Shown here: positions 32,162 through 49,599 of the stretch, piece by piece
How positions within the stretch are numbered: position 1 is the stretch's first letter
How the letters are laid out: each line of letters opens with the position of its first letter
Assembly (NCBI RefSeq): GCF_024502345.1
Contig: NZ_JALDNN010000001.1
DNA: 64,000 nt
Direction: 5' to 3' (one strand)
Source: Escherichia coli
GTDB lineage: Bacteria; Pseudomonadota; Gammaproteobacteria; Enterobacterales; Enterobacteriaceae
Notes under the pieces: model-generated
The model's database searches: none
Told to the model about the DNA's origin: nothing
The model's input: the letters and a program-made list of their open reading frames with translations, nothing else
Made by a program: the position numbers and the translations under genes

Positions 32162-33356
<1,195 letters not shown>

Positions 33357-33775: not shown

Positions 33776-34105
33776 TCAGTTCTTTTTCCCGGCCAGCATA
33801 TCAATCATCATGGGATAAATCTTTTCGCACTTCATGCCCGGATTCTGTACTGCGAAACTCCACCCCTCGTCCATCGCCGCAGCAACCTCTGTTGTTGAGG
33901 CTATGGGCCAATCGCTCACGGTGTCGTAGACTTTACTGATAGCCTTGTTCTTATCCATGCCGGTGTGTTGCTGCTGGCACATTCTGACCATTACTTCTGC
34001 GGCCTGAGCAGGCTGGCTTGCCGGGTAAGCAGCCAGCGCCGGGGCGGATGTCGTTGTGATGAGCAGTGCGGTAATAATATGCTTCTTTATTGTGTTACCC
34101 TTCAT
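33776..34105 (-). CDS. Small exported protein (signal peptide), function unknown
   Basis: 109-aa ORF with N-terminal hydrophobic signal (HIITALLITTTSAPALAAYPA); last gene of leftward operon. Confidence 0.5.
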   Translation of the reverse strand: MKGNTIKKHIITALLITTTSAPALAAYPASQPAQAAEVMVRMCQQQHTGMDKNKAISKVYDTVSDWPIASTTEVAAAMDEGWSFAVQNPGMKCEKIYPMMIDMLAGKKN

Positions 34106-34620
34106 TGAACCTGAATGCCCTGAACCGGGCTATTGTCCCATGTCATCGGTCGGTCTTCCGGAATTGCCGGGGCACTGTTAGTGGCCGGTTTATCAACAAC
34201 AGGTTTCGCGCTGGCGGGAAGGTCATCTGGTGAAATAACTCGGGTTATCACACCCATCTTCTCACCAACAGCGGAGTTCATCTGATCGCAGAGGGTTTTT
34301 ATCTGGAGCCGGATACCGCTCTGGTTTATTCCTTCGCTTTTGAATTGCTGCTCAAGAATAAAGCGGTCCTGAAGGGAATGGTAATAGTTAATATTGTCCT
34401 TCGTTAATATCATGATGTTGCCGGTATTATCCTGATAGCGATTGCTGCGGATAAGTTTATCCAGTGCGGTTAAAGCCTCATCGCCAGTGTAACCATACTG
34501 GTGGCAGGTATTCAGGGTGGCATAAGCCTCATACAGCCCCTGCAAATTTTCTGCGGGGAGTGTTTTTGCCCCGGCACAACCTGAAAATGCCAGAAGCAAC
34601 ATAGCAGCGGTTTTCCTCAT
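34102..34620 (-). CDS. Putative lipoprotein, function unknown
   Basis: 172-aa ORF, signal peptide with lipobox-like LAFSGC; overlaps downstream gene by 4 bp. Confidence 0.55.
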   Translation of the reverse strand: MRKTAAMLLLAFSGCAGAKTLPAENLQGLYEAYATLNTCHQYGYTGDEALTALDKLIRSNRYQDNTGNIMILTKDNINYYHSLQDRFILEQQFKSEGINQSGIRLQIKTLCDQMNSAVGEKMGVITRVISPDDLPASAKPVVDKPATNSAPAIPEDRPMTWDNSPVQGIQVQ

Positions 34621-34672
34621 TTTAGGTAGTCTCCTTTCATTGACGTTTCATCATCCGTCATGCGCGTTACAG

Positions 34673-35200
34673 TTAACGGATGCGGATATTTCTGGTGATT
34701 TTTCCATGTGTCAACGGGCTGCGTTTTTCCACAAAGAAATACGCGACATTGAACGCGGATTTGCGATGGTTGCCCCGGCCCAGAGAAGGCCAGCTCCTGA
34801 AGGACTCAATTTGTTCTTCGGTATAGGGTGTGTCAGAAAAATCGAACAGTACAAGCAGGGCTTTGCCGTCATACTTCATCAGTTTCTTCACCTCCGTGCT
34901 GTTGACGGAGGCTGACAGCGCAGAACGGGCAGCTCCCGGCTTACGGACGGCGAACTCTACAGCCACATCGTCAATGACGAAATCAATGTAGCCATGTCCG
35001 GACAAACTGCCCGGTAGTTTTCCCCTAACCTCAGGTGAGAGGCTGTCAGCAAACCAGCCCAGTAGGTAGCAACGCACCAGCGGTAATAGCTCCCGCTCAT
35101 TGCATTCGTTAAGGCGCAGGGTTTTGACAAATGCTTTCCGGTAAAGGGAACTAAAAAGGTACTCAAAGCATTCCGTTACTTCAGTAATAGTGGTCGCCAC
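34673..35200 (-). CDS. Hypothetical protein (175 aa)
   Basis: ORF directly downstream of Ner-like gene on the same strand; no family recognised. Confidence 0.5.
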   Translation of the reverse strand: MATTITEVTECFEYLFSSLYRKAFVKTLRLNECNERELLPLVRCYLLGWFADSLSPEVRGKLPGSLSGHGYIDFVIDDVAVEFAVRKPGAARSALSASVNSTEVKKLMKYDGKALLVLFDFSDTPYTEEQIESFRSWPSLGRGNHRKSAFNVAYFFVEKRSPLTHGKITRNIRIR

Positions 35201-35212
35201 TCTATGCTCCCT

Positions 35213-35491
35213 TCAGCTTTCCTTTTTGACAGACCTGCCTGCGTAGCGCTCAGGCCAGATAGTTTCGGGCGTGGTATCCAGTGCCTCAGCAATAATCTTT
35301 TCTGCCCGTGGATAGTGGCGCTCAAAAGCGTTACTCAGTGTCCTTGAGGCCAGCCCGTGATGCCGGGAGAGAGCAGACAGGGAAAGTCCCCGCTTGTGCA
35401 GGGCGGCGACAATATCAGCCCGGTGCCAGTTAACAGCACTTCCCTTACTTCGCTTTTTTTGCGAATCTGTTGAGTTACTCAATGTATTCAC
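35213..35491 (-). CDS. Ner/Nlp-family HTH DNA-binding regulator
   Basis: 92-aa ORF; WHRADIVAALHKRGLSLSALSR...IWPERY matches the Mu Ner / Sfs7 family pattern. Confidence 0.75.
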   Translation of the reverse strand: MNTLSNSTDSQKKRSKGSAVNWHRADIVAALHKRGLSLSALSRHHGLASRTLSNAFERHYPRAEKIIAEALDTTPETIWPERYAGRSVKKES

Positions 35492-35603
35492 TCCGGGTTG
35501 TTAGTACTGGAGATATTAAAAGCGAACAAAGGGAAGTTATCAAGTTCCTTTTGTGGTTATTTGCGCTCATTTAACTAACGCTTTGATAAGAGGTGAAATT
35601 TTT

Positions 35604-35984
35604 ATGGGCAGTGAACAGATGACTGACCCCTGCGTTACCGGAATGACGGAGAGTGGGGGGTGGCTTACAGCAGAGCAGTTTGCCGGAATGGAAGGGATGC
35701 CGGGCACAGCGAAAGGGGCGCGACTACGTCTGGAAAAGCTCACTGCTCTGCACCCGGAAATCCGCCGCAAACGCACCAGTGGGAAGGGGTTTCTGTACCA
35801 TATCAGCGCGGCAGGGATGGCACTGAAAAGTGAGCGGGATGCGACAGATACCTCAGCAGACGAGCAGCTCAACCTCTGGATACAGCTGTTTCGCACAATG
35901 AAACCGGCCTCCAGGGATAAACTTTTGCAGCAGGCTCTGGCTCAGGTTGCGAGGGACCTGACTAAAGGAGACGTTAACCAGTAA
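35604..35984 (+). CDS. Putative DNA-binding protein, Mu repressor-like N-terminal domain (divergent from ner-like gene)
   Basis: ATG 35604 with RBS gaggtgaaa; motif WLTAEQFAGMEGMPGTAKGARLRLEKL resembles the Mu-type winged-helix DNA-binding domain; weak. Confidence 0.4.
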   Translation: MGSEQMTDPCVTGMTESGGWLTAEQFAGMEGMPGTAKGARLRLEKLTALHPEIRRKRTSGKGFLYHISAAGMALKSERDATDTSADEQLNLWIQLFRTMKPASRDKLLQQALAQVARDLTKGDVNQ

Positions 35985-36031
35985 CAAGTGATAGATACTC
36001 TGGTTGCGCTGGAAGTGATAATAGGAATCAT

Positions 36032-36060
36032 TTGCTTTAACAGTTTGATTTTGCTATAAT
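36032..36060 (+). promoter_or_regulatory. Candidate sigma-70 promoter (TTGCTT-17 bp-TATAAT) upstream of the 207-aa ORF
   Basis: -35 ttgctt 36032-36037, 17-bp spacer, -10 tataat 36055-36060; followed by 12-bp inverted repeat taatacagtggc/gccactgtatta (36061-36100). Confidence 0.4.
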
Positions 36061-36067
36061 TAATACA

Positions 36068-36691
36068 GTGGCAGTCATTGCGTACTCAGCCACTGTATTA
36101 ACCCATCCTGGCTTGTTCACAGCCATCACTTTTCCTGGAATAGCAACAATGACACTTCCCCGAGACGTTCATGCGTCCCGTCAGGGCCAGCATGACTACT
36201 TATGTGGCATCTACAGCTTGATTAACACCCTCAGTTACCTTTATGACGGCAGAGTACGGCGAGAAAAATTAATGTACCGCCTGCTTAGCAGCTATAAGCG
36301 ACGATGGGATTTATTTGATCTCCTGACGCTCGGTCTGGACGAGGAACAAATGGACCACCTGATTGGTGATGTTCTCCTGAAAGGGCATTACGCCCGGCAT
36401 TATCCCCTGAATTTTCATACCCCCTTCCGTTACCGCTCCCTGCGCAGCCGACAGATACTCAGCGACATCAGCGACTGGCTGGCGTTGCCGGAGAACCAGG
36501 CGCAGCGCGTGGTGATTCTGGGCACATCCTGGCACTGGTCTGTGGTAGTCCGTACCGATGCTACCCGGCTGTTCCTGTTTGACAGCTTGGGAATACGCAG
36601 CCAGCGCAGGGATACGTTCTCCGTACAGCCGGAGCTGAAGCGCCACACGCTGCTGCCGGACGCCATCTATTTCGTCGAACGTGAGTTCTGA
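36068..36691 (+). CDS. Hypothetical protein (207 aa; start uncertain, alternative ATG at 36149)
   Basis: ORF upstream of radC-like gene; no family recognised. Confidence 0.45.
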   Translation: MAVIAYSATVLTHPGLFTAITFPGIATMTLPRDVHASRQGQHDYLCGIYSLINTLSYLYDGRVRREKLMYRLLSSYKRRWDLFDLLTLGLDEEQMDHLIGDVLLKGHYARHYPLNFHTPFRYRSLRSRQILSDISDWLALPENQAQRVVILGTSWHWSVVVRTDATRLFLFDSLGIRSQRRDTFSVQPELKRHTLLPDAIYFVEREF

Positions 36692-36713
36692 CCCCTGCAG
36701 AAGGAGACTGACC

Positions 36714-37202
36714 ATGACTTTTACCGCCTGCGACCAGAGCGGTTTTTACCGGACCACCGGGCCGGTGTCCCGCGAGGATATTATCCGCTTTGCCCATACG
36801 CTGCTCTCCCGCCGGTTTCGCAATCGCCGAAAAATTACGTCCTCTAATGATGTTCACCAGTGGCTGGTGCTGAAGCTGGCAGAGGACACCCGGGAGAGCT
36901 TCGGAATGATACTGCTCTCGCAGCAGCACCATCTTCTGGGCTACCACATCCTGTTCACCGGGACGCTGAACCAGACCATGGTTTACCCCCGCGAAATTGT
37001 CGCTCTGGCGCTGACGCATCATGCAGCCGCAGTGATACTGGTCCATAACCACCCAAGCGGTGAGCCTGAGCCGAGCCAGGCCGATAAACTCATTACCCAA
37101 AAAATTACCGATGCGCTTTCACTCCTTGATATCCGCGTCGTGGACCACCTTATTGTGGGTGGTGACGATGCTTACTCCTTTGCAGAACACGGCCTGCTCT
37201 GA
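36714..37202 (+). CDS. RadC-like JAB-domain protein (YeeS/YfjY/YkfG family)
   Basis: start at ATG 36714 after aaggag RBS; JAMM motif region ...AAAVILVHNHPSGEPEPSQADKLIT... and C-terminal DHLIVGGDDAYSFAEHGLL closely resemble E. coli YeeS. Confidence 0.85.
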   Translation: MTFTACDQSGFYRTTGPVSREDIIRFAHTLLSRRFRNRRKITSSNDVHQWLVLKLAEDTRESFGMILLSQQHHLLGYHILFTGTLNQTMVYPREIVALALTHHAAAVILVHNHPSGEPEPSQADKLITQKITDALSLLDIRVVDHLIVGGDDAYSFAEHGLL

Positions 37203-37289
37203 GTGACCTGGTTTAATACACATTAACCACGGTAATCCACGTTCGCCTTATCCCTTCATTTTTAAACTGTAAATACTGAGGTTTTAACC

Positions 37290-37721
37290 ATGAACATCAA
37301 TGCCGTTATTCAGCCGGCAGGCTTTGTGCTGCCTGTCAGTCTGCAGCTGTTCGACATGCTGATGGTAGAAGCAGGCGAAAAAACCGCTAGTAAACATCGC
37401 ATTACCGCCGTTACGCTCAATTTCCGGGACCCGAACTACAGCGCGGAGCGGGGCGGCTATCACCCGGTGGAAATTCGGCTGGTTCACCAGGGGGATGAAT
37501 GGTGCCTGGACTACGCCACCGATTTTGGCTATGTCGGCAACGCTTACCCCGAGCTTGAGAAAATCATCGATATCAGTTGGTCGCAGGGCTACGTCTGGCA
37601 CTGCCGTACAGGGGATTTGTCCCCGTCTGAGGCGCGGGCGCTCTACACCCTGTGGGAGCGCAACTTCCTGAGCTATCACGCCAGTGGGGTCTACATCACC
37701 CGAGTGCTGTGGGAAAGCTGA
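37290..37721 (+). CDS. Hypothetical protein in the position normally held by the CbeA-type antitoxin (143 aa)
   Basis: ORF between radC-like and cbtA-like genes; no similarity to YeeU/YfjZ antitoxins as I recall them. Confidence 0.5.
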   Translation: MNINAVIQPAGFVLPVSLQLFDMLMVEAGEKTASKHRITAVTLNFRDPNYSAERGGYHPVEIRLVHQGDEWCLDYATDFGYVGNAYPELEKIIDISWSQGYVWHCRTGDLSPSEARALYTLWERNFLSYHASGVYITRVLWES

Positions 37722-37864
37722 ACTACTGACCTGAGCTGCCGGGCGCACCGGTAAACATCCGTTCTCCCTTCTGGCGGGCGGGTTTCCATAAGCGCGGCTC
37801 GGGTTGCCGTTCATGTTCGCGCCCTCTTTTCAATACCATTCACATTACCCACGAGAATACTGTC

Positions 37865-38482
37865 ATGAAAAAACAACCTGTCTCACTGGCTCGGGAGACA
37901 TCGTGCTGCCTGTCGCCTGCTGATGTCTGGCGTACCCTGCTGACTCACCTGCTGGCACAGCACTATGGGCTTGCCCTCAACGATACGCCGTTTGGTGAGG
38001 AAGGCACCATTCAGGCGCATATTGACGCTGGTGTTACCATGATGGAAGCCCTGAATACCGTCGTTGAGAAGTATGATCTGGTACGTACAGATCGGGACAG
38101 TGTGGGCCTTCACCCTGGCTCCTCATTGATTACTGCTATTGATGTTCTCCGGGCGCGAAAAGCCACCGGGCTCCTGAAGCGGGGAGCATATCAGTTCGTG
38201 AGCCACATCACGCAGGGGCGCAGGCCCGCCCCGGACAGTGCAGTAACCGCCGGGCCCTCCGCGCCGTTACCATTGCTACCATCGGACACATTCACCCGAC
38301 AGGACGCGGTGTCCATTATGGCGGTGTATGACTGTGTGGCTATTGAGGATGACCAGCATACCCATTTCCGTCTGGCAATACGCGATGCTGAAGGTCAGCT
38401 TATCTGGCGGGCCTGGAACTTTGAGTCCGGAGCCGGGCAGGGGCTTAACCACTATCTGCAACGTTATGGTGTGAAAAAATGA
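37865..38482 (+). CDS. CbtA/YeeV-family type IV toxin homolog with about 75-aa C-terminal extension
   Basis: N-terminal 125 aa (…DVWRTLLTHLLAQHYGLALNDTPFGEEGTIQAHIDAGVTMMEALNTVVEKYDLVRTD…IDVLRARKATGL) align with CbtA (…[37 protein letters not shown]…VEKYALVRTD…IDILRARRATGL); ORF continues to 205 aa. Confidence 0.72.
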   Translation: MKKQPVSLARETSCCLSPADVWRTLLTHLLAQHYGLALNDTPFGEEGTIQAHIDAGVTMMEALNTVVEKYDLVRTDRDSVGLHPGSSLITAIDVLRARKATGLLKRGAYQFVSHITQGRRPAPDSAVTAGPSAPLPLLPSDTFTRQDAVSIMAVYDCVAIEDDQHTHFRLAIRDAEGQLIWRAWNFESGAGQGLNHYLQRYGVKK

Positions 38483-38576
38483 CCACACAGGGCTGAATGG
38501 CATCCCCAGATGAATTGACTGCTTCCCCGGTCTGCATGGCCGGGATACTCCATTTTTAAGTATTGAGGATGATGTT

Positions 38577-39524
38577 ATGACCTCGAACCGCAAGGGCAGG
38601 CGTGCGGAAACTGTGCGCCAACAAAACGTCCCCACCATCAACCCGGCACAGCTTTGGCTGGCAGGTCTGACGCGCGCCGGGCGCAAGGGGATGCAAAGCC
38701 AGCTTCGGCGCTGTGCCGGTATCCTGCTTCCGGGCTCGGATACCGACAGCTACCCCTGGCAGATGCTGAACTACACGGGGATGATGCAGATCCGTGCGCA
38801 CATGCTGGATGCTGGCTATGCTGTCGCGACTGTCAACATGGCACTGTCGGCGCTGAAATCGGTTGCCTTTAGCGCGTTCAGTATGGGTCTGATGGATGCT
38901 GACACGCTTGCGCGCATACGCAACGTCAGGCGGGTCAGTGGTGACGGTTGTAGGCTGGGGCGTGCGCTGGCCCGCCATGAAATCCGGTCAATGCTGGCGG
39001 CGGCAGCGACGTTCTCCACTGTGCGCTGTCAGCGCGAACGGGCCATTTTGTTGCTTCTGTGTGGTGCCGGGCTGCGAGCGGGTGAGCTGGTTGCCCTGAA
39101 TGCGGAGGATATTGACGTTGCCGCAGGGATTGTCTGGGTCAGGGAGGGAAAAGGGCGCAAAAGTCGTGAAATTCACCTTGCCGCGAAGGTATGCACGCAG
39201 CTGCGCCGTTGGCTGAAGTGCCGTGGAGACCATGAAGGGCCGTTGTTCAGTCGTATCAGCCGGGCAGACCGGCCAGGGCCACACAGGCTTACCACGACTG
39301 GATTGACGGGGCTGTTGGCACAGCTACGCGAAGCCGCTGGCGTGGACTATTTCACCCCGCACGACCTCAGACGAACGTTCATCACACAGTTGCTGGAGCA
39401 GGGAACCGACCTCAACGTGGTACGCCAGCTTGCGGGGCATGCCGATATCGCCACAACCACCCGATATGACTACAGGGGCCGGGGTACGCAGGACAGAGCC
39501 TCCAGGGCTTTCTGTTGCTGGTAA
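38577..39524 (+). CDS. Tyrosine recombinase / phage-integrase-family protein (XerC/D-like)
   Basis: 315-aa ORF; catalytic-domain motifs LLLCGAGLRAGELVAL, TPHDLRRTFIT, AGHADIATTTRYDY. Confidence 0.8.
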   Translation: MTSNRKGRRAETVRQQNVPTINPAQLWLAGLTRAGRKGMQSQLRRCAGILLPGSDTDSYPWQMLNYTGMMQIRAHMLDAGYAVATVNMALSALKSVAFSAFSMGLMDADTLARIRNVRRVSGDGCRLGRALARHEIRSMLAAAATFSTVRCQRERAILLLLCGAGLRAGELVALNAEDIDVAAGIVWVREGKGRKSREIHLAAKVCTQLRRWLKCRGDHEGPLFSRISRADRPGPHRLTTTGLTGLLAQLREAAGVDYFTPHDLRRTFITQLLEQGTDLNVVRQLAGHADIATTTRYDYRGRGTQDRASRAFCCW

Positions 39525-39823
39525 ATCTTCATGGGGTGGGGGATGGCCTTCGTCACCTGCTGATTAAATTCACCAGAGGGTCCCGGAGATATTTTTGATG
39601 CCCCAAAGGCACGTCCAGGGCGGGCTCAGTGCTATGGGGAGGCCGGGAAAGTACGACCAACTCACCACCCCTGCTGAATGACACTATCGTACTTCGCGGC
39701 GCGGAGAGTATAACTTGGTAGCTGAGTATTTCTCAGAGCGATTAAAGTAGTTGTCTGTATGCATGTAGCGTCGGGAAACCATGAAACTAAACTCTGAATT
39801 CATTTAGCTGAATTTGCAGGCAA

Positions 39824-40339
39824 CTACGCCGAAGGACTGTCTGCCCGCTCTGTGCCATCCAGCTTTTCCATTGTTTGGATTACCCAGCGAAAATCATTTA
39901 TTTTTTCAGTCGTTTCCTTGCTCCATGTTTTGCCCGTTACTGCTGTTTTTTTCTTCTCTATATCCACTGGCGATGGATATTTTTTACAAAATTTGAGCAT
40001 GATATCCTTCAGTTCACACTTTTCCTTCAACTCATGAAATTTCAGATAGAGTTCTTTCAGCAGTTTCGCTTCTTTCGATACAGGTTCATATAAGTAGTCG
40101 ATGTAGACCATGTTGATCATGTTATCCAGCGCCTGGCGATATACTTTTCCTCTTCCTTTCTTCAGCATTGAATAATCGTCGTCGTCAAGCCAGTTAGCGA
40201 TCTCCAGTAAACGCTCCTGGCTGTCTTCATGCAGGTTGATTTCAAACCGCTTTCCATATTTCTCCTCCAGCCCTTTGCGGCTTTTCTGCTTAGGCGTCCT
40301 GGGCTCCGCCTTAGCCATATTTTCTTCGTTTTTTCCCAT
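39824..40339 (-). CDS. Hypothetical Lys/Glu-rich protein (171 aa), AT-rich gene
   Basis: ORF between second recombinase and alpA, opposite strand; strongly AT-rich; overlapping plus-strand ORFs judged spurious. Confidence 0.45.
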   Translation of the reverse strand: MGKNEENMAKAEPRTPKQKSRKGLEEKYGKRFEINLHEDSQERLLEIANWLDDDDYSMLKKGRGKVYRQALDNMINMVYIDYLYEPVSKEAKLLKELYLKFHELKEKCELKDIMLKFCKKYPSPVDIEKKKTAVTGKTWSKETTEKINDFRWVIQTMEKLDGTERADSPSA

Positions 40340-40545
40340 AACTCATACCTCATTTCGGATTGCCACTATCAGAGATCTTTTTGGACCGTCATAAATCAAT
40401 GACGGTCATTCTACTCCAAAGAATGACCGTCCAAAAGTGGGCCGCGAACACTTTGACCGGCGATCGCCATGAATAATCGGCCGAAATCAACTTTGTAAAG
40501 GGAGGGCTGGCCGCCCACTGGGGGTGGATAGATGGAGTTAAAAAT

Positions 40546-40752
40546 ATGAATAACTGCAGGCTGCTCGATATCAAGACTGTGCTCGGGATGTACCCAGTAT
40601 CACGCGCAACGTTATATCGCCAGATCAAGGCGGGGCTCTTTCCGGAGCCTGTACGCATCGGTGCCCGTCGGGTGGCATGGCGTATGGAGGATATCCACGC
40701 GCATATCAGTGGGCTGCCCAATGTTGAGCTGGCTGAAGCAGCTCGTCTGTAA
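40546..40752 (+). CDS. alpA: AlpA-family phage regulatory protein (excisionase-like HTH)
   Basis: 68-aa ORF MNNCRLLDIKTVLGMYPVSRATLYRQIKAGLFPEPVRIGARRVAWRMEDIHAHI matches AlpA/MerR-type excisionase pattern. Confidence 0.8.
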   Translation: MNNCRLLDIKTVLGMYPVSRATLYRQIKAGLFPEPVRIGARRVAWRMEDIHAHISGLPNVELAEAARL

Positions 40753-40853
40753 GCCTCATATAGCCCCTCGTACAGGGGTTCATTCACCATAGTCAGTAGC
40801 ACCTCTACGGATAGCTACTGACATGAATTGCCGTGAGGCTAAGGGAACTGGCG

Positions 40854-41948
40854 ATGATTACAGTTAATCGTGAGCGTGTGGACAATCTCTCCGGGTCTGT
40901 ATACCTGGGGCGAAATACTGACGGCAATAGGTGCTATGGGCGAATTGATAAACTCGCCTGGGTAATGGATTTGTCTGATGATAGCGAGAATGCAGTGCTG
41001 AGTGGGCGTCTGGCTGGGCTGAGAGCGGGAGGGAACTATATCGTGCGGTGCCGCCCTGCCGGTAAAGGGGAGTGTTCTGGCCTCTATCGATCCGTGGTGG
41101 AGATCCGTCTCAAGAGTAAATCCAGTCATCATCCGCTGATGCTGGTCATTTACTTTGCGCCGACGAATACGGTGCGGGGCTCAGTGCGTATGGAAATGAG
41201 TCCTCAGCACTATTCAGCAGAGCAGATCACAGGACTGTTCATCTGGCTTGGGCGTAAGGGACGTCTGGGGAAGTACCTGTACAGGGGCTTGCGCCAGGCA
41301 TGGGTGACGTCCATTCACTACGCACTGGATGTAAAGGGAATGAAACTTCATGACTACCTGATTGGTCTGGCAAAGGTTCATGATGGTGAGTTTTACGATT
41401 TGCATGGTGAACAGGAAGGGTTGCGTCTGGGCTCTGCCACGCTGGTAGCCTCTGTCTACGCCAAGGTCCATTCTCCGTCGTTGAGCGTGGAGGAGCGCTA
41501 TGCATCTCCAAAGATTACGCTGGAGGAGGCGCAATTCGAGCGTTTTTTACGTCTGGAACTCCGCCTGCAGCCGGGGCGCCAGCAATTGAAGCTAAGTCAG
41601 ATGACGAGTATGACCTGTCTGGTCAGCAGGCTGATGTTCTGGCGTCGGGAGGTACTCCAGGATCGTCGGCTGGATCCGGATTTTGCGCAGCGGCTGGCGT
41701 TGATGTCAGTACCACGTGCACGGGCCACGTTTGAGCCCGCGAGGAGTCTGAATGGCCACAGAGTCAGTGCAACCCCAAAGGCTGCCAGGAAACGCGTGGA
41801 CAAGGTCATGGCTAATTACCGGGCGGCATTGTTTGATTCTGCGGCTATCTGGGACCAGTTACCGGTCATTCTCGCAAAACTCGGGCTTCTCGCGCAGCCT
41901 CAGTACTGGATTTACCGTAATCGCGTGAAGTGGCGAGGGAGCCGCTGA
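40854..41948 (+). CDS. Hypothetical protein (about 364 aa), possibly replication-associated
   Basis: ORF directly downstream of alpA with RBS aagggaa before ATG 40854; family not recognised with confidence. Confidence 0.45.
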   Translation: MITVNRERVDNLSGSVYLGRNTDGNRCYGRIDKLAWVMDLSDDSENAVLSGRLAGLRAGGNYIVRCRPAGKGECSGLYRSVVEIRLKSKSSHHPLMLVIYFAPTNTVRGSVRMEMSPQHYSAEQITGLFIWLGRKGRLGKYLYRGLRQAWVTSIHYALDVKGMKLHDYLIGLAKVHDGEFYDLHGEQEGLRLGSATLVASVYAKVHSPSLSVEERYASPKITLEEAQFERFLRLELRLQPGRQQLKLSQMTSMTCLVSRLMFWRREVLQDRRLDPDFAQRLALMSVPRARATFEPARSLNGHRVSATPKAARKRVDKVMANYRAALFDSAAIWDQLPVILAKLGLLAQPQYWIYRNRVKWRGSR

Positions 41949-42301
41949 AGATAAGCCAGAAGCATATTAGAGGGGGTGTGATGCCACCCTCGTCTGTGGC
42001 GACCAAAAAAATGGCTCCCCCTGATATGTTCTGTGAGGCACGCCTCATCACAGCTGAACAGGGGGTGTGGCTATAGTATGGTGTATACAGTACATACCAG
42101 TACCAGTCTGTTCCCCCTCTGGAACCCTCAATGAGATTGCGACAAGTCACAAGGCATTGTTTTGAGGAAAATTCAGATCCTGAGATAGCCCCCCAAAAAA
42201 TGCAGCCAGCCTGAGTCACATCACTCTGCGCAACCGTAATTCACTGTGCAAATGTACAGCCTGTAAACAGGCAGCATGTTCATAAAACGGAGCACAGTGA
42301 A

Positions 42302-43786
42302 ATGAAAGCCTACTGCACACAAAACAATATTCTCGTCACGGAAAGCACGATGAATGCTTTCAGGGAGGCCATTTTTAGCGTTCCATTCGACGACACATGT
42401 GACGGACGATGCAAGCCAACGTGGTATATGTCCATTGCTATTTTTTTGCAGCATCTTATTTGCAGCGCCACTGCGAGCCGTAACACGCGTAAGCGGTCGC
42501 AATTTAAGGGGAACCGACTATGGACCTGTTCAGTTCCGTTTCCTTATGCACTGGGAGAAAAAGTGGCTCCGGCAGTATTCAGACGCTCAAGAGAGCTACC
42601 GTTTGAAAGAGCGCTGGAAAAGCTGGAGGAAGTAGGGTTTATCAGAATCATTACACACGATGTTATACGTCACAAATGCCGGGAATTTGCGCTTTCTCGG
42701 CGGTTTCTCGACGTGCTGTTTCCCGGGGACAGAACTGCTTATCTCAACCTGGAAGATCGGTATGGCTATCTGACCGATGTTTACCGCAGACGTATGGGAC
42801 CGATGACGCTGGAAGAACGGCTTGCTCAGGCCATGTTACGAAAGTGCAAAGTCAGGCATTTAACGTCAACCCGGAATATACCTGATAAGGCCTTTCGTGA
42901 GCGGGTTGCAGCGGTGTATGACCGGCTTGAAGCGTTGCCGGTTAACATCGATGCGCTGAGGATGTACTGTAACGAGCAACCATCCACTGTGAACAGGGTT
43001 TATTATCACAATTTTATCAGCCATCTTTGTGAAGCCGGTGTTGAGGCTATCAGCCTGAGTCCGTTAATCGTCTCATATCGGCAGGTATATCGTACGGCTA
43101 GGCTGGGCGGGCGTTCGTTTGAGGTGGGGAAGGGGTTTCAGTATCTGCCAAAAGGCATGAAATGGGCATGTCTGGGGCAGGGCTATAACTACGATATAAA
43201 AAGCAGCCAGCTTGAGATACTGCGTCATGAGCTGCAGCGTATCGGATTATCCGATAAAAACCTGAAGCGGCTGGAAACGGATTACATTACAAAGAAACTG
43301 GGCGTCACCACGGATGAGGTAAAACAATTTAGGTTTGCTGCTGTCTTTAGCGCTGGTTCGGTCAGCCTTTCAGTGAAAAGTGGAGTAAGGAAGAGGCTGA
43401 ATAAAGTTCTCGGCGATAAGAGGGCAGAAAACGTGCTCAAACGCTGGAAAAAATTGATGCAACCGCTACGGGAAGATCTGAAGAGGCTGATCGAGGATTA
43501 TCTGGCGACGGGAACCACAAATCGATACGGGCTTTGCGTGAAAAATGCTGTGGGACAAAATTTTAACTGTAGCTGGAAGAATTTCAGCGCCAGACAGGCA
43601 TGGCAGCCAGCGCAGATGCACCGAAAGCTGCTTGCGCACATGTTACAGGGGCTGGAAAGTCAGGCTGTGTACGATTATGTTGCCAGCAATAAAGGCGTTT
43701 GTGCGCTAGAGCATGATGGGTTTGTTACATATGAAGAGATAACTGACTGGTCCCATCCATATCTTTTGATAGAGAAAAAGCATTGA
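42302..43786 (+). CDS. Hypothetical protein (494 aa)
   Basis: long ORF after a 350-bp intergenic gap; no family recognised. Confidence 0.5.
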   Translation: MKAYCTQNNILVTESTMNAFREAIFSVPFDDTCDGRCKPTWYMSIAIFLQHLICSATASRNTRKRSQFKGNRLWTCSVPFPYALGEKVAPAVFRRSRELPFERALEKLEEVGFIRIITHDVIRHKCREFALSRRFLDVLFPGDRTAYLNLEDRYGYLTDVYRRRMGPMTLEERLAQAMLRKCKVRHLTSTRNIPDKAFRERVAAVYDRLEALPVNIDALRMYCNEQPSTVNRVYYHNFISHLCEAGVEAISLSPLIVSYRQVYRTARLGGRSFEVGKGFQYLPKGMKWACLGQGYNYDIKSSQLEILRHELQRIGLSDKNLKRLETDYITKKLGVTTDEVKQFRFAAVFSAGSVSLSVKSGVRKRLNKVLGDKRAENVLKRWKKLMQPLREDLKRLIEDYLATGTTNRYGLCVKNAVGQNFNCSWKNFSARQAWQPAQMHRKLLAHMLQGLESQAVYDYVASNKGVCALEHDGFVTYEEITDWSHPYLLIEKKH

Positions 43787-43922
43787 AGCAAGTTATACAT
43801 TATCTAAATCTGAGGGCTCATAGATTGGGCTGTTGCTCGGTTAAATCATTGTATCTTTTCAGTATGTTATAGTGTATTCTCATTTAAAGTGAGCGTAACT
43901 ATATCCTGAGTCAATTGAAAAT

Positions 43923-45458
43923 ATGAAGCAAGAAACGATCGTTCAAAAAATTTGGAGTCTCTGCAACATACTAAGAGGTGATGGTATCACCTATTATCAG
44001 TATGTTTCTGAACTAAGTTATTTGCTTTTTCTGAAGATTGCTCAAGAAAATGGTTCAGAAAAGCTGATACCTCAAGGCTACCGCTGGGCTGATCTTGAAT
44101 CCCATCCAGAAGCAGGATTATTAGGGTTTTATCAAGAGATGCTCACTCACTTGGGTGCGCATGTTAAAAATGAAATCATAAGAGAGATTTACGCATTCCC
44201 TACAACCGTTTTCTCCCATTCTGAAAATTTAAAAGCTGTTGTAGATGGTATTTCGAAAATAGAGTGGCACCAAGTAGGAAAAGATGGGTTTGGCGACCTC
44301 TATAGTGGTTTAATTGATAAAAGTGCTCAAGATACGCGTTCGGGAGCCGGGCAGTATTTTACTCCACGCTCTTTAGTTAACACGATAGTGAGATTGATAA
44401 AACCGAGTCTTGGCGAATTGATTCAAGATCCTGCGTCAGGAAGTGGTGGCTTCTTAGTTTCTGCTGACAGCTATATTCGAGTCAAATATTCACGAAAAGA
44501 GTATCAATTGAACCCTCCTAAATATCAAGGAGTGGAAATAGAGAAAAATACTCGTCGAATTTGCTTAATGAATACCTTTTTACATGATTTAGATGCACAC
44601 ATTATCTATGGTGATGCACTGACTGATGACGTAGCAGGGTTGGATGAAGCCGATGTAATCTTAGCCAATCCCCCTTTTGGCAATAAGGCTGGGGGACAAC
44701 GTCCTTTACGTAACGATATTCCATTCCCCAATACAAATAAGCAATTAGCTTTTTTGCAGCATATTTATTTGAAGCTTAAAGCTGGCGGTCGAGCTGCTGT
44801 AGTGGTACCCGATAATGTACTATTCGAATCTGGGGTTGGTACCGATGTACGTCGTGACTTAATGAATAAGTGCAATCTTCATACTATCTTGCGACTGCCC
44901 ACTGGTATTTTTTACGCCCAAGGTGTTAAAACCAATGTTCTGTTCTTTACTAAAGGCTCTGACAAAGATAAATATCAACAAGATAGCTGCACTGAGAACG
45001 TCTGGGTATACGATCTACGTACCAATATGCCAAGTTTTGGTAAACGTACACCCTTCGGTAATTCAGATATTGGCTTTGCGGCAGAAGATTTCGGTACAGA
45101 TCAGCACCTCGGCGCGTTCGAAAAAGTGTTCGGAGATAATCCAGACGGCACCAGCAAGCGCACCGAAGGTGAATACAGCTTTGGTGCAACAGATATTGAA
45201 ATTGATACAGAAGCAGTAGAAGAAAACCTGAATGTTGATGAACAGCTAGCCCATTCTCGCTGGCGCTACTTCAGCCGTGAGTGGATAGCCAATAATAAAG
45301 GCGATTCGCTGGATATCTCATGGTTAAAAGACAAAAAGAGTGTCGATGCGGCTGGTTTATCCGAGCCAAACGTTCTCGCTCGCGAGGCAAAAGAAGAATT
45401 AGAAGCAGCATTGAGTGAGCTGGATAGTTTATTGATCGCATTGGAAGGGGCCGAATAA
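43923..45458 (+). CDS. hsdM: Type I restriction-modification N6-adenine DNA methyltransferase subunit
   Basis: 511-aa ORF with GQYFTPR, DPASGSGGFL (SAM binding) and NPPFG catalytic motif. Confidence 0.9.
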   Translation: MKQETIVQKIWSLCNILRGDGITYYQYVSELSYLLFLKIAQENGSEKLIPQGYRWADLESHPEAGLLGFYQEMLTHLGAHVKNEIIREIYAFPTTVFSHSENLKAVVDGISKIEWHQVGKDGFGDLYSGLIDKSAQDTRSGAGQYFTPRSLVNTIVRLIKPSLGELIQDPASGSGGFLVSADSYIRVKYSRKEYQLNPPKYQGVEIEKNTRRICLMNTFLHDLDAHIIYGDALTDDVAGLDEADVILANPPFGNKAGGQRPLRNDIPFPNTNKQLAFLQHIYLKLKAGGRAAVVVPDNVLFESGVGTDVRRDLMNKCNLHTILRLPTGIFYAQGVKTNVLFFTKGSDKDKYQQDSCTENVWVYDLRTNMPSFGKRTPFGNSDIGFAAEDFGTDQHLGAFEKVFGDNPDGTSKRTEGEYSFGATDIEIDTEAVEENLNVDEQLAHSRWRYFSREWIANNKGDSLDISWLKDKKSVDAAGLSEPNVLAREAKEELEAALSELDSLLIALEGAE

Positions 45459-47143
45459 TGATTGAGACTTCTTTACCATGGCTGAGAGTCCAGCTCGGTG
45501 ACGTAGTTCCCTATGGTAAAACCGAAAAATGCGAATTATCTGACGTTACAGGTAACACTTGGGTACTTGAGCTCGAAGATATAGAAAAAGATAGCTCGAA
45601 GATCATACAACGGCTAGATGCAACTGCACGACCATTTAAAAGCACGAAAAATAAATTCCGTAAAGGAGATGTCCTTTACGGGAAACTGCGACCTTACTTA
45701 AATAAAGTTGTCATTGCGGACAGTTCTGGCGTTTGTTCGACTGAAATCATGCCTCTAAATGCTGAGCCATTTATTGACAATAGGTACCTCTTTTACTGGT
45801 TGAAAACTGAAGTTTTTATTGATTTTGTAAATTCTGTAAGCTACGGCGTGAATATGCCTCGACTCGGAACTAAAGATGGATTAGCTGCTCCATTTATTGT
45901 AGCTCCGCTTGCTGAGCAAAAAGTTATTGCCGATAAACTTGATACCTTGTTGGTGCAGGTGGATGCCATTAAGGCTCGCCTCGAACGCATCCCAGAAATC
46001 CTAAAAACCTTCCGCCAATCGATCCTCACCGCCGCAGTTAGTGGGAAGTTGACGGAGGGATGGCGATTAAAGAATAAACTCAGTAATGTAGTTGTAAAAC
46101 AAAATATCAATCTACCAAAATTAACCCCAAATGAACACTACCTCGAACATGTTGAAGGATGGCAATGGGTAAGACTGGGTTCTGTTGTTAGTCTAATAAA
46201 CGGCGATAGAGGAAAAAACTACCCTAATAAAAATGAATATGTTAAGGATGGAATACCGTTCATAAATACAGGGCATATTAATTCAGATGGAACACTTTCT
46301 GATGAACGCATGAATTTTATTTCCAAGGATAAGTTTGACTCCTTAAGTGGGGGAAAGACGAAATCAACAGATCTAGTTTATTGCCTCCGAGGTGCAACTA
46401 TGGGAAAAACTGCACGTGTCCACTACAAAATAGGGGCAATAGCATCCTCTCTTGTAATTATCCGACCGAGTGATTACATAGACAGAGATTTCGCATATTA
46501 TTTTCTTATTAGCCCTCCGGCTAAAGATTTAATTAATGAATTTGATAACGGATCCGCTCAGCCAAATCTATCTGCAAAGAGTTTGTCTACATACCCTTTA
46601 CAACTCCCTTCGTTTAAAGAACAAATCGAAATCGTCAGTCGCGTCGAAGAAATGTTCAACTTTTCATCTCTTGCCGAAGCAAAAGCTAAAACTGCATTAG
46701 AGCGTGTCAATAAAATTACTCAATCAATCCTAGCCAAAGCTTTCCGAGGCGAACTCACTGCAGATTGGCGCGCCGCCAACCCGGATTTAATCAGCGAAGA
46801 GAAAAGTGCTGAAGCTTTGCTGGAAAAAATTAAGGCAGAACGTGAAGCCATCGAAAAACAACCTAAGCCAACACGTTCCGTTATAAAAAAAAATACAGGT
46901 GGCCGTATGAGTAAACAGATTATCAAAGTGGTTGAAGCGCTAAAACAAGCGGGAAAACCGCTTAGTGGCCAACAATTGTTAGCTGCAGCTGGTTACCCTA
47001 GTGATAGCAGTACTGAGCAACTGGAACAGTTCTTTCTGGATATACGTGACGCTCTTACCATAGAAGAGTCCATTGTAAAGCTTGAGCGCGGTGGCGACAG
47101 TCAAGATTGGTTCGCCTTGGCTAATAATAAAGCAAAGAACTAA
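45458..47143 (+). CDS. hsdS: Type I restriction-modification specificity subunit (two target-recognition domains)
   Basis: 561-aa ORF overlapping hsdM stop (ATAATG); repeated conserved segments (IPEILKTFRQSIL..., ITQSILAKAFRGELT) typical of HsdS central and C-terminal regions. Confidence 0.8.
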   Translation: MIETSLPWLRVQLGDVVPYGKTEKCELSDVTGNTWVLELEDIEKDSSKIIQRLDATARPFKSTKNKFRKGDVLYGKLRPYLNKVVIADSSGVCSTEIMPLNAEPFIDNRYLFYWLKTEVFIDFVNSVSYGVNMPRLGTKDGLAAPFIVAPLAEQKVIADKLDTLLVQVDAIKARLERIPEILKTFRQSILTAAVSGKLTEGWRLKNKLSNVVVKQNINLPKLTPNEHYLEHVEGWQWVRLGSVVSLINGDRGKNYPNKNEYVKDGIPFINTGHINSDGTLSDERMNFISKDKFDSLSGGKTKSTDLVYCLRGATMGKTARVHYKIGAIASSLVIIRPSDYIDRDFAYYFLISPPAKDLINEFDNGSAQPNLSAKSLSTYPLQLPSFKEQIEIVSRVEEMFNFSSLAEAKAKTALERVNKITQSILAKAFRGELTADWRAANPDLISEEKSAEALLEKIKAEREAIEKQPKPTRSVIKKNTGGRMSKQIIKVVEALKQAGKPLSGQQLLAAAGYPSDSSTEQLEQFFLDIRDALTIEESIVKLERGGDSQDWFALANNKAKN

Positions 47144-47152
47144 GGACAGCCC

Positions 47153-48757
47153 ATGAAAGTCGACAAACTGCATATTCGCTCACGCTTTAAAAATCTTGAA
47201 AACGTGAAAGTGGACTTTGACGAAAACCACCTGATGACCGTTATCGTAGGCCGTAATGGTTCCGGTAAGTCCAATGTTCTAGAAGCCTTGGTTGCTATAT
47301 TTCGCAATCTTGATTTAGGTGAAGCACCAACATTTTCTTATGAGTTGGACTATCAACTAGGTGAGGAAGCCGGGGTTAAGTGGTATGACGTCAAGGTTGA
47401 TGCAGATCCAGACCGCGGAACGCTAGCAAAGCAATACCAAGTTTATGTCAAAGATAAACACGATAGCAAAGCGGATTTCAAGCTTACACCCTTCTCCAAA
47501 GTGAAACGCGATAAGAAAACCAAACAAGCAGAGTTTCTTCCTAACTTTCTATTCGCCTATTATTCCGGACCATCGGATAGATTAGAAAAATACTTTCGAA
47601 AGCATCGTGATGATTATTATCGAAACCTACTCTACAACAAGCTTGACTTGAAAGCAGATATTCGTTCTCTATTTTATGCCAAACCCTATCACAGTCAGTT
47701 TGTGCTCTTGGCATTTTTCCTGTCAGATGAAAATAGTCCTCAGCGCAAGTTTATTAAGGAGCATTTGGGTATTGAGGGATTGGACAGTATTCATTTTGTG
47801 ATGCGCCAACCTGAGTGGGCTAAGCTGAAGGGGGAATTATTCTGGGGAGCACAAGGTGTAGTTCGTCGCTTTTTGGATGAATTGATACAGCACACATTGT
47901 CACCGATAAAAGTAACTCGTCAAGAAGATACGTCGTTAACGGGTAGTTATATTCGAAATGAGTTCTTTCATCTATTTTTACCTGACGTAAACGCACTACA
48001 TGAATTTGCTAGAGATCTCAGTGCTGACGAACTGTTTAAAATGCTTGAAAGCACTCTGCTGTCAGAAATTATCTCTGAGGTTAGCATACGGGTGAAAGTA
48101 ACCAGCAGCAGGGAGCCTCTCACTTTCCGTGAACTTAGCGAAGGTGAACAACAGCTATTAACCGTATTGGGCTTACTCTGGTTCACCGGTGGTAAAGATT
48201 CCTTATTTTTACTCGACGAACCTGATACCCACCTTAATCCGTCATGGGCCGTTAAATACCTTAAATTCCTGCGTGAATTCGTACCCAATCATGAAACCAG
48301 CCATTTACTAATGGTCACACACCATCCTTTAGCTATTGCCGAGCTGAAGAAACAACAAGTACAAGTCATGTGGCGTGACGATGAAAATAATGTTCACTCA
48401 CAAGAGCCTTATATAGATCCTCGTGGCGCTGGCTTTATGGCCACACTTACTGAGATTTTTGGTCTAAATACAACACTGGATCTGGAAACCCAAAAGTTAT
48501 TGGACGATAGGAACGAACTAGCCCATATCGAAAATCGAACAGAAGATCAGAACAACCAGCTTGACCTTCTTAATGATGAGTTAAACAGACTAGGATTTTC
48601 ACTTGAAAACAGGGACCCGTTATACAGCGAGTTTCTTTTAGCATGGCAAGACCTAAGATACAGCGATAAACCACCACTAACACCGGATAAAGCGGCTCAG
48701 AGACGAGCTGCTATGAAAAATGTAATTGAGGCGCTTAAAGCTAAGAAGGGTTGCTAA
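47153..48757 (+). CDS. ABC-type (AAA_15/21-like) ATPase, Septu PtuA-like
   Basis: 534-aa ORF; Walker A VGRNGSGKSNVLEAL, signature LSEGEQQLL, Walker B LFLLDEPDTHLNP, H-loop VTHHP; starts 10 bp after hsdS. Confidence 0.7.
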   Translation: MKVDKLHIRSRFKNLENVKVDFDENHLMTVIVGRNGSGKSNVLEALVAIFRNLDLGEAPTFSYELDYQLGEEAGVKWYDVKVDADPDRGTLAKQYQVYVKDKHDSKADFKLTPFSKVKRDKKTKQAEFLPNFLFAYYSGPSDRLEKYFRKHRDDYYRNLLYNKLDLKADIRSLFYAKPYHSQFVLLAFFLSDENSPQRKFIKEHLGIEGLDSIHFVMRQPEWAKLKGELFWGAQGVVRRFLDELIQHTLSPIKVTRQEDTSLTGSYIRNEFFHLFLPDVNALHEFARDLSADELFKMLESTLLSEIISEVSIRVKVTSSREPLTFRELSEGEQQLLTVLGLLWFTGGKDSLFLLDEPDTHLNPSWAVKYLKFLREFVPNHETSHLLMVTHHPLAIAELKKQQVQVMWRDDENNVHSQEPYIDPRGAGFMATLTEIFGLNTTLDLETQKLLDDRNELAHIENRTEDQNNQLDLLNDELNRLGFSLENRDPLYSEFLLAWQDLRYSDKPPLTPDKAAQRRAAMKNVIEALKAKKGC

Positions 48758-49599
48758 TGATTTACATCAAACGAGACGCCACGCTAATTCCTGCAAAGGT
48801 ACTTGCCGTTGCCCAACGCGCGCAAGATGCTCTGGAACAGCTTCCCGCTGAGCAGAGGAAAGGTTTCATCAAGAAAAAGTCTCATATATGGAGAGGCTTT
48901 TCTAAATACCTAGCCCAAATGTCTTATGGGAAGTGCTGGTATTCAGAAGCTAAAGATGCAGGTGCAAATTTCGATGTAGATCATTTCCGACCTAAGGCTG
49001 AAGCAAAGAGGACAGAAGATTTGGTCGATGCGGATGGTTATGCGTGGCTCGCATTTGATTGGGAAAACTTCAGGCTTTCTGCTCAGAATTGTAACCGTTT
49101 AAACACAGATGAATCAGGTAACACGGTAGGAAAAGGCAGTTGGTTCCCGCTGCTAGATGGTAGCCCTAAAGCCTGCTGGGATAATCGCTGTATTAACGAT
49201 GAAAAAGTCACTTTGCTAGACCCTGTAGTTAAAGCTGACCTCACCTATATAGACTACGACGACAGCGGTAGATTTACTTCAAGTAAGCTCTGCGTTGGTA
49301 AGGCAGCATTAAGGGTTAGGCAATCTGGCATTATTTATGGCCTCAATTTGGAGAAAATGCGTGAAGCACGATTTCAGGTTATGAGGGAGGCTAAAGAACT
49401 CCTTGAAACTATTCACCAATGTGCCGAAGACTTAGACCCTCTGGGCAATGAAGCCCCCATGAGAACTATTGAACGACAAATAGAACAACTCCAATCCAGA
49501 ACCCGGGCCGATGCACCATTTAGCCGTGCAGTAAGAACACAACTGATAAAACTCGGTGCAGAGGATTACTTAATTGATCGAAGTTTGGATGCAGCCTAG
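48757..49599 (+). CDS. HNH-motif nuclease-like protein, Septu PtuB-like
   Basis: ATG 48757 overlaps stop of upstream ATPase (TAATG); motif KCWYSEAKDAGANFDVDHFRPKA ... FRLSAQNCNRLN consistent with an HNH endonuclease fold. Confidence 0.6.
   Translation: MIYIKRDATLIPAKVLAVAQRAQDALEQLPAEQRKGFIKKKSHIWRGFSKYLAQMSYGKCWYSEAKDAGANFDVDHFRPKAEAKRTEDLVDADGYAWLAFDWENFRLSAQNCNRLNTDESGNTVGKGSWFPLLDGSPKACWDNRCINDEKVTLLDPVVKADLTYIDYDDSGRFTSSKLCVGKAALRVRQSGIIYGLNLEKMREARFQVMREAKELLETIHQCAEDLDPLGNEAPMRTIERQIEQLQSRTRADAPFSRAVRTQLIKLGAEDYLIDRSLDAA

Follow-up and report, generated by a model that had tools for sequence, protein, structure and literature searches.

In this study, we analysed a 64,000-nt stretch of Escherichia coli DNA (NCBI RefSeq assembly GCF_024502345.1, contig NZ_JALDNN010000001.1; the whole stretch is called the window below) and propose, at somewhat better than even confidence, that the genes at 38.6-43.8 kb form the conserved core for excision and replication of one ~20.9-kb defence island inserted in mutS, in which AlpA would promote excision, a Rep nickase would act in replication and a TV-Pol-type primase-polymerase would work at a cis site of its own. 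The two large proteins of this core had been left as being of unknown type in a preliminary description of the sequence, and this label can now be replaced. The 364-aa protein (Rep) is most likely a rolling-circle replication initiator or nickase, its Rep_trans fold being well supported by structure prediction, and the 494-aa protein (ORF494, Pol) is most likely a stripped-down, DNA-polymerase-I-like enzyme of the TV-Pol type, for which a family-A polymerase fold is well supported. With these two assignments, the earlier suggestion that replication-type factors follow AlpA is borne out. Functional annotation for Rep and Pol is lacking in all four libraries consulted, namely Pfam, NCBIfam, PHROGs and PADLOC.

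Results

The list of open reading frames (ORFs) agrees with the layout first described, with ORF171, AlpA and the two large ORFs in place, and the untranslated gap between the large ORFs is real. The recombinase named together with them is likewise a real gene, lying outside the segment to which it had been assigned. The core is made up as follows, in window coordinates:

38577-39524, plus strand: XerC-like tyrosine recombinase, 315 aa (Pfam Phage_integrase, E 1.3e-32; sub-threshold XerC/XerD models; no arm-binding domain)
39824-40339, minus strand: ORF171, 171 aa, Lys/Glu-rich, divergent from alpA
40401-40431: perfect 12-bp inverted repeat GACGGTCATTCT / AGAATGACCGTC, from a repeat search of the ORF171-alpA intergenic region
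40546-40752, plus strand: AlpA-family helix-turn-helix (HTH) protein, excisionase or activator, 68 aa (Pfam Phage_AlpA, E 3.8e-9; phrog_66 and phrog_2790, annotated excisionase/regulator)
40833/40854-41948, plus strand: first large ORF (Rep), 371 aa from the GTG at 40833 or 364 aa from the ATG, the start used by RefSeq
41949-42301: non-coding region of 353 bp with the conserved cis site, upstream of pol
42032-42052, plus strand: small hairpin or inverted repeat TGTGAGGC-AC-GCCTCA-T-CACA, ~20 nt upstream of the motif, found by eye and by DNA folding
42068-42081, plus strand: conserved motif TGGCTATAGTATGG, present once in the window and once per island
42302-43786, plus strand: second large ORF (ORF494, Pol), 494 aa

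The databases are silent on ORF171 and the two large proteins, none of which has a credible match in Pfam, NCBIfam or PADLOC. The sole Pfam match among the three (GBP_PSP, E 0.015, 9 residues) is spurious, and phmmer and profile searches of PDB sequences returned chance matches only. The large genes can be considered real, since both belong to conserved families of full-length homologues and both yield confident AlphaFold models (pLDDT 87.5 and pTM 0.79 for ORF494; pLDDT 91.4 and pTM 0.88 for Rep, from an alignment of 34 relatives).

ORF494 has ~150 close relatives of 490-510 aa, all of them from Enterobacterales, named hypothetical and free of Pfam domains, and its only PHROG match is phrog_30690, of unknown function (2.4e-29). 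Pfam DNA_pol_A matched none of 36 family members, even at E up to 5, and ten distant polymerase relatives gave no Pfam matches either. In the model, a winged-helix-like region takes up approximately the first 245 aa and the polymerase core residues 245-494, with no exonuclease domain. This is the format of the TV-Pols, i.e. a minimal family-A core of thumb, palm and fingers in a protein of 400-600 aa that lacks nuclease domains. A Foldseek search against viral models returned uncharacterised jumbo-phage proteins first, followed by virophage helicase/primase/polymerase proteins and PolA enzymes. When a profile of 134 ORF494 family members was aligned by hhalign with E. coli Pol I and T7 DNA polymerase, the motifs fell in register, giving the following correspondences between ORF494 and Pol I (Klenow numbering):

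G-G-R271-S-F-E...F-Q280-Y-L-P: T-G-R-L-S-S...N-L-Q-N-I-P (hhalign)
D298: D705 (hhalign)
Q303: E710, the steric gate (hhalign)
K341, F345 and F349: K758, F762 and Y766 (hhalign)
R441, Q449 and G450: R841, Q849 and G850 (hhalign)
H471-D472-G473: H881-D882-E883 (manual alignment)

These positions are kept far beyond the close family. Among 98 distant representatives, R271 is conserved in 96, Q280 in 95, D298 in 97, K341 in all 98 and Q449 in 88, and further towards the C-terminus G450 in 94, E452 in 97, H471 in 88, D472 in 95 and G473 in 94, while R271, D298 and D472, which correspond to the beta-hairpin Arg and the metal-binding Asp pair of TV-Pols, are invariant in 36 close relatives. Near-universal conservation of catalytic positions in such distant sequences therefore argues for an active enzyme. 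The position four residues before K341, belonging to the RxxxK motif of TV-Pols, is R or K in 39 of the 98.

Placement within the TV-Pols follows from a strong match to a protein of a named carrier, cyanophage Ma-LMM01. A profile search of 1.84 billion representatives gave 388 clusters at E below 1e-3, which have mainly the polymerase core in common. Among the ORFs in the first 50 kb of Ma-LMM01, the family HMM picked out gp030 at E 7.7e-41, the next match having E 0.33, and hhalign joined the ORF494 family to gp030 with 99.3% probability over ORF494 residues 2-494. It should be noted that the text of the TV-Pol paper (PMC2579912) names the phage Ma-LMM01 and not the gene gp030. In the phage genome, gp030 (L046, 22746-24266) is annotated as hypothetical and lies beside IS605-type transposases.

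Rep likewise belongs to a restricted family, with 48 relatives in a collection of 5.8 billion proteins, all from Enterobacterales and nearly all named "hypothetical"; a single UniRef entry among them carries the name "Replication initiation protein". Structure comparison matched the Rep model to the Rep_trans fold as seen in RepD/RepDE (PDB 4cwc, 4cij), at a sequence identity of only 11-12%. Rep itself has no match to Pfam Rep_trans (PF02486), 11 of 34 family members match it below threshold (best E 0.0025), and the family profile found nothing among PDB sequences. Invariant in the 34 Rep sequences are E114, D159 (within H-Y-A-L-D), Y202-x-K204 and R233-x-E235-x-R237. These residues resemble the active-site region of pT181 RepC with its motifs RIY(191)NK and RVEIELKR, to which they may correspond residue by residue. 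By tblastn, no relatives of Rep were found in 50,697 phage records or in 72,556 plasmids. Compared with the Rep_trans initiators (RepC of pT181/pC221, RepD, RepDE; PMC4797284) and the MOB_T relaxases, Rep of the window has an additional helical C-terminal part of ~100 aa, and its gene is chromosomal, located in a Gram-negative island and without plasmid or phage homologues by tblastn.

The gap between the two genes holds a conserved site composed of the small hairpin and ATGGCTATAGTATGG, for which comparison with 22 other loci gave the consensus ATATGGCTATAGTATGGGG. This site, like the two predicted folds and the conservation at the catalytic positions, is established directly. At every locus checked the motif is present as a single copy, 167-248 nt upstream of the pol ATG; of the 23 loci, 17 have the exact 8-mer and the others a degenerate copy that could be aligned. 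Often the motif has a GAGGC/GCCTC hairpin before it and A-tracts on either side; the stem is found in many aligned loci though not in all those of the plus group. One sub-lineage of the polymerase has the entire unit of hairpin and motif turned round with respect to the gene. A correlation between motif orientation and Rep type was considered and rejected, since there is none. In one locus (L028, ~6795-6850), seven tandem CCATTAT heptamers abut the motif CTATAGCC, with the look of an iteron-style expansion of one part of the site.

An origin had been suggested for this gap, and a conserved cis element is indeed present, but in the form of a single hairpin-plus-motif site, with no classical multi-copy iterons: the only repeats in the gap are two-copy ones of 10-11 nt (AGGGGGTGTG twice and CCAAAAAATG twice), which are unconvincing alone. 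An Rfam scan of 39400-42500 gave no family, scans for sigma-70 promoters and terminators gave nothing in the gap and no strong sigma-70 promoter, and the predicted DNA fold around the motif is no more stable than that of shuffled sequence (z = -0.85). The region upstream of pol is 89% identical over 564-581 nt between an E. coli variant of the core (L002) and a Serratia locus (L012) despite different upstream genes. Because it is kept with pol in the Serratia locus, which has no Rep_trans gene, the cis site belongs to pol and not to Rep. We infer that it is the place where the polymerase is recruited, either as a priming site or as a component of an origin.

The exact 5.4-kb core occurs in 5 of 5426 complete E. 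coli genomes, in copies that are 99.9-100% identical. The wider architecture reads [HTH_35 ... DUF2787 ... RadC], XerC-like integrase, reverse ~170-aa gene, AlpA, Rep_trans-like gene, gap, Pol and variable cargo, with a P4-type integrase at an island end, and it is found in at least 15 named Enterobacterales genera, represented by E. coli, Klebsiella, Citrobacter, Hafnia, Brenneria, Salmonella, Serratia, Lonsdalea, Kosakonia, Pectobacterium, Lelliottia, Mangrovibacter, Morganella, Proteus and Providencia. Gene content and synteny across genera are thereby directly established, as is the recurrence of these genes in related integrative elements, in line with the preliminary description. Full-length homologues share 41-82% identity for Rep and 50-74% for Pol; between the window and the E. 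coli variant L002 all five core proteins are homologous, with 54% identity for Pol and 24% for Rep (E 7e-23). A Rep gene could be detected upstream of pol in 18 of the 23 loci. In the Serratia locus (L012, 4541-8958), the Rep slot is taken by a 280-aa protein and a 562-aa DUF927 protein, and Pol and its upstream region are kept. This replacement can be likened to the displacement of initiators and helicases reported around TV-Pols (PMC2579912). Reverse-oriented genes for an Mrr-like and a 150-aa protein also lie between AlpA and Pol in this locus.

Beyond the islands, full-length Pol homologues are present in 50 records of PaBG-group jumbo phages with Erwinia, Dickeya and Yersinia as hosts (~26% identity, E 1e-36), and a metagenomic Pol relative lies amid genes for a DnaG-type primase and a clamp loader. 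The homologues in PaBG-group phages (Erwinia phage Alexandra, L006 6929-8506; L042 8001-9575) are also preceded by a non-coding stretch of ~500 bp; upstream of the jumbo-phage gene, no copy of the motif was found by eye.

The borders of the island are set by the first 44 nt of mutS, which BLAST against the ygbA-mutS region of strain K-12 (positions 264-307) located twice in the window. The two copies agree at 37 of 44 positions and lie at either end of a 20.9-kb insertion that separates mutS from ygbA, so that the island extends over 29878-50767, borders which are likewise established directly. Besides the core, the island and its ends comprise:

29834-29877: left att, 44-bp direct repeat, corresponding to the first 44 nt of mutS
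30074-31375, plus strand: P4-type tyrosine integrase, 433 aa, at the mutS end (Pfam Arm-DNA-bind_3, Phage_int_M and Phage_integrase)
36681-37721, plus strand: RadC (JAB) and DUF2787 genes, backbone upstream of the core (Pfam RadC 3.4e-43, DUF2787 1.1e-34)
43923-50555: variable defence cargo with hsdM, hsdS, Septu PtuA and PtuB, and Fic (PDC-S04) (Pfam, PADLOC)
50724-50767: right att, 44-bp direct repeat (BLAST against K-12)

MutS is still encoded by a full-length ORF of 853 aa. With the att repeats being the start of the mutS coding sequence, the island therefore provides the start-codon region of mutS. The integrase at 30074-31375 is probably that of the island, and a P4-type integrase of the same kind is found at the ychF-adjoining island end in relatives. 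Relatives of the island occupy other sites than mutS, for example beside ychF. The preliminary description had treated the genes from the recombinase onwards as a separate element ("module 2"). This two-element reading, with an att of its own for the second module, had to be given up: the 44-bp mutS copies are the only flanking repeats, no third copy was found in the window, and no repeats better than chance link 29878-39900 with 43700-50800. The XerC-like recombinase is consequently internal to the island, as there is neither a third att nor any other delimiting repeat pair.

This recombinase is 56% identical to its counterpart in L002, travels with radC and is not present in the Morganellaceae islands; radC and DUF2787 are syntenic in most related loci. 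The radC/XerC-like junction is present at ~92% identity in ~600 of the 5426 complete E. coli genomes (~11%), all of them without Rep and Pol. In E. coli 1162C (L010, 14563-20397) and ~600 other genomes, the place of Rep and Pol is taken by a different gene in reverse orientation, an AlpA-like HTH protein and three further unknown proteins, a gene set that may be an alternative, uncharacterised replication module. Elsewhere in the island, an IS5-family transposase (DDE_Tnp_1 and DUF772, 32194-33210) splits a gene that is intact as an 885-nt ORF in E. coli KMi029, and one 205-aa ORF at 37865-38482 joins a CbtA_toxin domain (residues 1-111) to DUF905 (137-205), where RefSeq has a truncated cbtA pseudogene and a separate DUF905 gene.

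In the cargo, hsdM and hsdS are directly followed by Septu PtuA and PtuB and then by Fic, and hsdR is not in the island; among the E. coli relatives, hsdR is intact in L003 and L005 and interrupted by an insertion sequence (IS) in L002 and L004. The cargo of relatives differs at the same position (type I restriction-modification, Septu, AbiE, Fic, HEPN, DUF87 and others), and one Serratia relative has the same hsdM-hsdS-PtuAB-Fic cargo as the window.

At the other end of the core, ORF171 is Lys/Glu-rich and AT-rich as first described (27.5% Lys+Glu; 43% GC against 55-61% GC in its neighbours), and five short plus-strand ORFs of 52-72 aa lie over it. It has no family or PDB match, and among the PHROGs only a weak MazG-family match (E 0.028). 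The family is small and fast-evolving, with 33% identity to the L002 counterpart over the N-terminal 86 aa, and its gene position is conserved. ORF171 is presumed to be a regulator, and the 12-bp inverted repeat between it and alpA is probably the operator of divergent ORF171/alpA promoters. Further copies of GACCGTCAT accompany the repeat over 40379-40436.

Discussion

We propose a model in which ORF171 and AlpA would constitute a divergent switch around the inverted-repeat operator, with AlpA promoting an excision to a circle that would be executed by the P4-type integrase. On the circle, the Rep_trans-type nickase would cut an origin and allow rolling-circle replication with host helicase and polymerase, while ORF494 would serve as the island's own primase-polymerase, brought by its winged-helix-like N-terminus to the hairpin-ATGGCTATAGTATGG site, where complementary-strand synthesis would start and perhaps be extended. 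Amplified island DNA could then be passed on horizontally, probably by phage hijacking, by analogy with I55-type islands. Nicking, priming, site recognition, excision and any phage dependence are steps that we infer from gene content, folds and synteny.

The closest described relatives of ORF494 are the TV-Pols, which Iyer, Abhiman & Aravind (2008, Biol Direct 3:39; PMC2579912) present as minimal, PolA/T7-RNA-polymerase-like proteins of 400-600 aa from bacterial mobile elements and viruses, without nuclease domains, a subset of which has an extra N-terminal domain and lies beside lambda-type integrases in restriction-modification hot spots. In the same paper, TV-Pols are predicted to be primase-polymerases and Ma-LMM01 is among the named carriers. 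ORF494 shares with them both catalytic Asp residues, the beta-hairpin Arg and the O-helix Lys, as well as an N-terminal accessory domain and an integrase neighbourhood rich in restriction-modification genes. It differs in that the R of RxxxK is lost in the enterobacterial lineage, which has an invariant R344 instead, that its partner is a Rep_trans nickase, in contrast to the D5-like helicase, resolvase or transposase found with TV-Pols elsewhere, and that its host element is a P4-integrase defence island with a conserved upstream DNA site attached to the gene.

Experimental precedent for the function proposed for ORF494 comes from CcPol-MP of SCCmec alone, an A-family polymerase with an OB-fold partner (MP) that was shown experimentally to be a primase (Bebel 2020, as cited in PMC10061031). 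CcPol is the primase of its element and not a repair polymerase, and in both cases an A-family polymerase domain lies in the conserved core of an integrative island with restriction-modification or defence cargo. However, CcPol needs the adjacent OB-fold single-stranded-DNA-binding (SSB) partner and adjoins a helicase, neither of which is found beside ORF494; CcPols keep remnants of a 3'-5' exonuclease, whereas the N-terminus of ORF494 is winged-helix-like; all reported PolA-SSB examples are from Bacillota (Rice 2023, PMC10061031), whereas ORF494 is from Enterobacterales; and the two S. aureus CcPols were already annotated as A-family, whereas ORF494 is invisible to Pfam.

In terms of the whole element, the window island has the gene set of I55- or PICI-type satellites, with int, alpA, a replication module, flanking repeats and defence or accessory cargo. 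For I55-type islands of Pseudomonas, excision and transduction as satellites by a jumbo phage have been shown (Zhao et al. 2025, PMC12595487). The island of the window resembles them in its end integrase, alpA, RadC, HTH and initiator-like genes, variable defence cargo, direct repeats and lack of transfer genes, but I55 inserts downstream of tmRNA, encodes YqaJ and an inovirus Gp2-like protein and has no reported polymerase, whereas the window island inserts in the mutS 5' end and its relatives beside ychF. This parallel is no more than an analogy. The idea of a direct connection from the I55 helper phage to the Pol-carrying phages was rejected, as these belong to different jumbo-phage groups (PMC12390700, PMC7412058). 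Gram-negative PICI and P4-like satellites share the order int, divergent regulator, alpA and replication module and the P4-type integrase; they differ in that the replication module of the window island consists of Rep_trans and TV-Pol, and neither a Pri-Rep or P4 alpha primase-helicase nor packaging, capsid-redirecting or Psu/Delta/Sid genes were found among the window ORFs scanned.

Several observations weigh against this model. On the side of the polymerase, motif C reads H-D-G and not H-D-E, the second carboxylate being replaced by Gly; a Gln occupies the steric-gate position where PolA has Glu; and the O-helix Arg (position R754) is lost in the enterobacterial group, which has E or D there and the invariant R344 instead. 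Judged by sequence, ORF494 could make either DNA or RNA, and may or may not be able to prime. Unlike in CcPol-MP, no helicase or OB-fold partner adjoins pol, which is flanked by the Rep_trans gene and then the 353-bp gap upstream and by hsdM 137 bp downstream, with no small ORF between, and no helicase was found in the island ORFs scanned with Pfam. The position of pol at the border with the defence cargo also fits a role in defence. In the PaBG-group jumbo phages, the Pol homologue is presumably accessory, because these phages have a PolA replicase of their own, fused to UDG, along with a clamp and its loader (PMC7412058). On the side of Rep, no double-strand origin or nick site assignable to it was identified, the sole conserved site travelling with pol; since that site is kept in Rep-less islands and flips in orientation, it cannot simply be the Rep origin. 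Finally, no packaging or transfer genes are recognisable in the island, nor terS or capsid genes in the ORFs scanned with Pfam.

The same observations can be read in other ways. Rep could be a MOB_T-like relaxase that nicks an oriT, the excised single-stranded DNA being moved by a co-resident conjugative element and primed by Pol in the recipient in the manner of plasmid-encoded primases. The fold match of Rep is compatible with such a mobilisation module, as Rep_trans-related proteins are relaxases of integrative and conjugative elements (ICEs) and integrative and mobilisable elements (IMEs) (PMC9371924, PMC7563843, PMC5704250), and so are the lack of transfer genes of the island's own and a hairpin plus motif that could serve as an oriT-like or priming site. 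We nevertheless regard mobilisation as unlikely, given that the known MOB_T systems are in Firmicutes, that there are no coupling-protein or mating-pair genes nearby, that the tblastn search of plasmids with Rep was negative, that the conserved site stays with pol and not with Rep, and that the related I55 island is moved by phage and not by conjugation (PMC12595487). Somewhat less probable still is dedicated transcription, in which ORF494 would be a promoter-specific single-subunit RNA polymerase of the T7/N4 class, acting at the CTATAG site to supply origin primer RNA or to express island genes. This reading is kept alive by the CTATAG core, which resembles the T7/SP6 promoters. The ORF494 family gave no hhalign alignment with T7 RNA polymerase, and ORF494 lacks the T7-like features looked for, namely a Tyr at the T7 Y639 position, a small steric-gate residue and promoter-recognition elements.

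With about the same low probability as dedicated transcription, pol and its upstream region could form a self-contained anti-phage system, comparable to a retron or DRT with a non-coding nucleic acid, or could interfere with jumbo-phage replication. The independent movement of this unit relative to Rep, its direct contact with the defence cargo and the full-length homologues in PaBG-group jumbo phages would all fit, but PADLOC gives no match, the gap has neither an Rfam family nor a significant fold, the relatives on phage contigs lie amid replication genes (DnaG-type primase, clamp loader), and the family of TV-Pols has been tied to replication (PMC2579912, PMC10061031). Moreover, true defence cargo is exchanged, whereas pol is a constant part of the core with a fixed place. 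The accessory anti-phage role that the preliminary description had offered for the two large proteins is less likely for the same reason, as both Rep and Pol are in the invariant core and the defence cargo downstream varies. It is very improbable, finally, that the genes are inactive leftovers of an old, decaying element. The window variant is rare in E. coli, the island has an IS insertion and its type I system is without hsdR, yet both ORFs are intact, with full-length homologues, invariant catalytic-type residues and confident models, and the five E. coli copies are nearly identical. We retain the excision and replication core as the preferred reading.

Conclusions

Both large proteins belong to described superfamilies. 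What appears to be undescribed is the pairing of Rep and Pol, the cis site attached to pol, and the occurrence within Enterobacterales defence islands that have a P4-type integrase, with homologues in jumbo phages. No paper on such a pairing in Enterobacterales came up in our literature searches. Nor does a survey of the DNA polymerases of bacteria from 2026 (PMC12926913) contain anything comparable to ORF494, the only PolA groups that it gives being PolA1-3 and a minor PolA1-like one. Both families are labelled "hypothetical" in many Enterobacterales genomes and metagenome assemblies, and their identification makes a common class of defence island a testable replicon with an initiator, a polymerase/primase and a cis site. 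The jumbo-phage homologues moreover provide a lead to the movement of islands that have no transfer genes.

Should Pol prime at the cis site of its own gene, it would become the first characterised TV-Pol of Gram-negative bacteria and a second, mechanistically different family-A polymerase used as a primase. As a more tentative extension, to which we give a rather low probability, ORF494 and the hairpin-ATGGCTATAGTATGG site might together be a self-contained system for sequence-specific de novo priming, based on site recognition by the winged helix and exchanged between defence islands and PaBG-group jumbo phages, so that the island could replicate without host priming, for instance while a helper jumbo phage infects the cell. 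Were this the case, the islands would be polymerase-carrying phage satellites, a Gram-negative counterpart of the SCCmec CcPol system with a different mode of template recognition.

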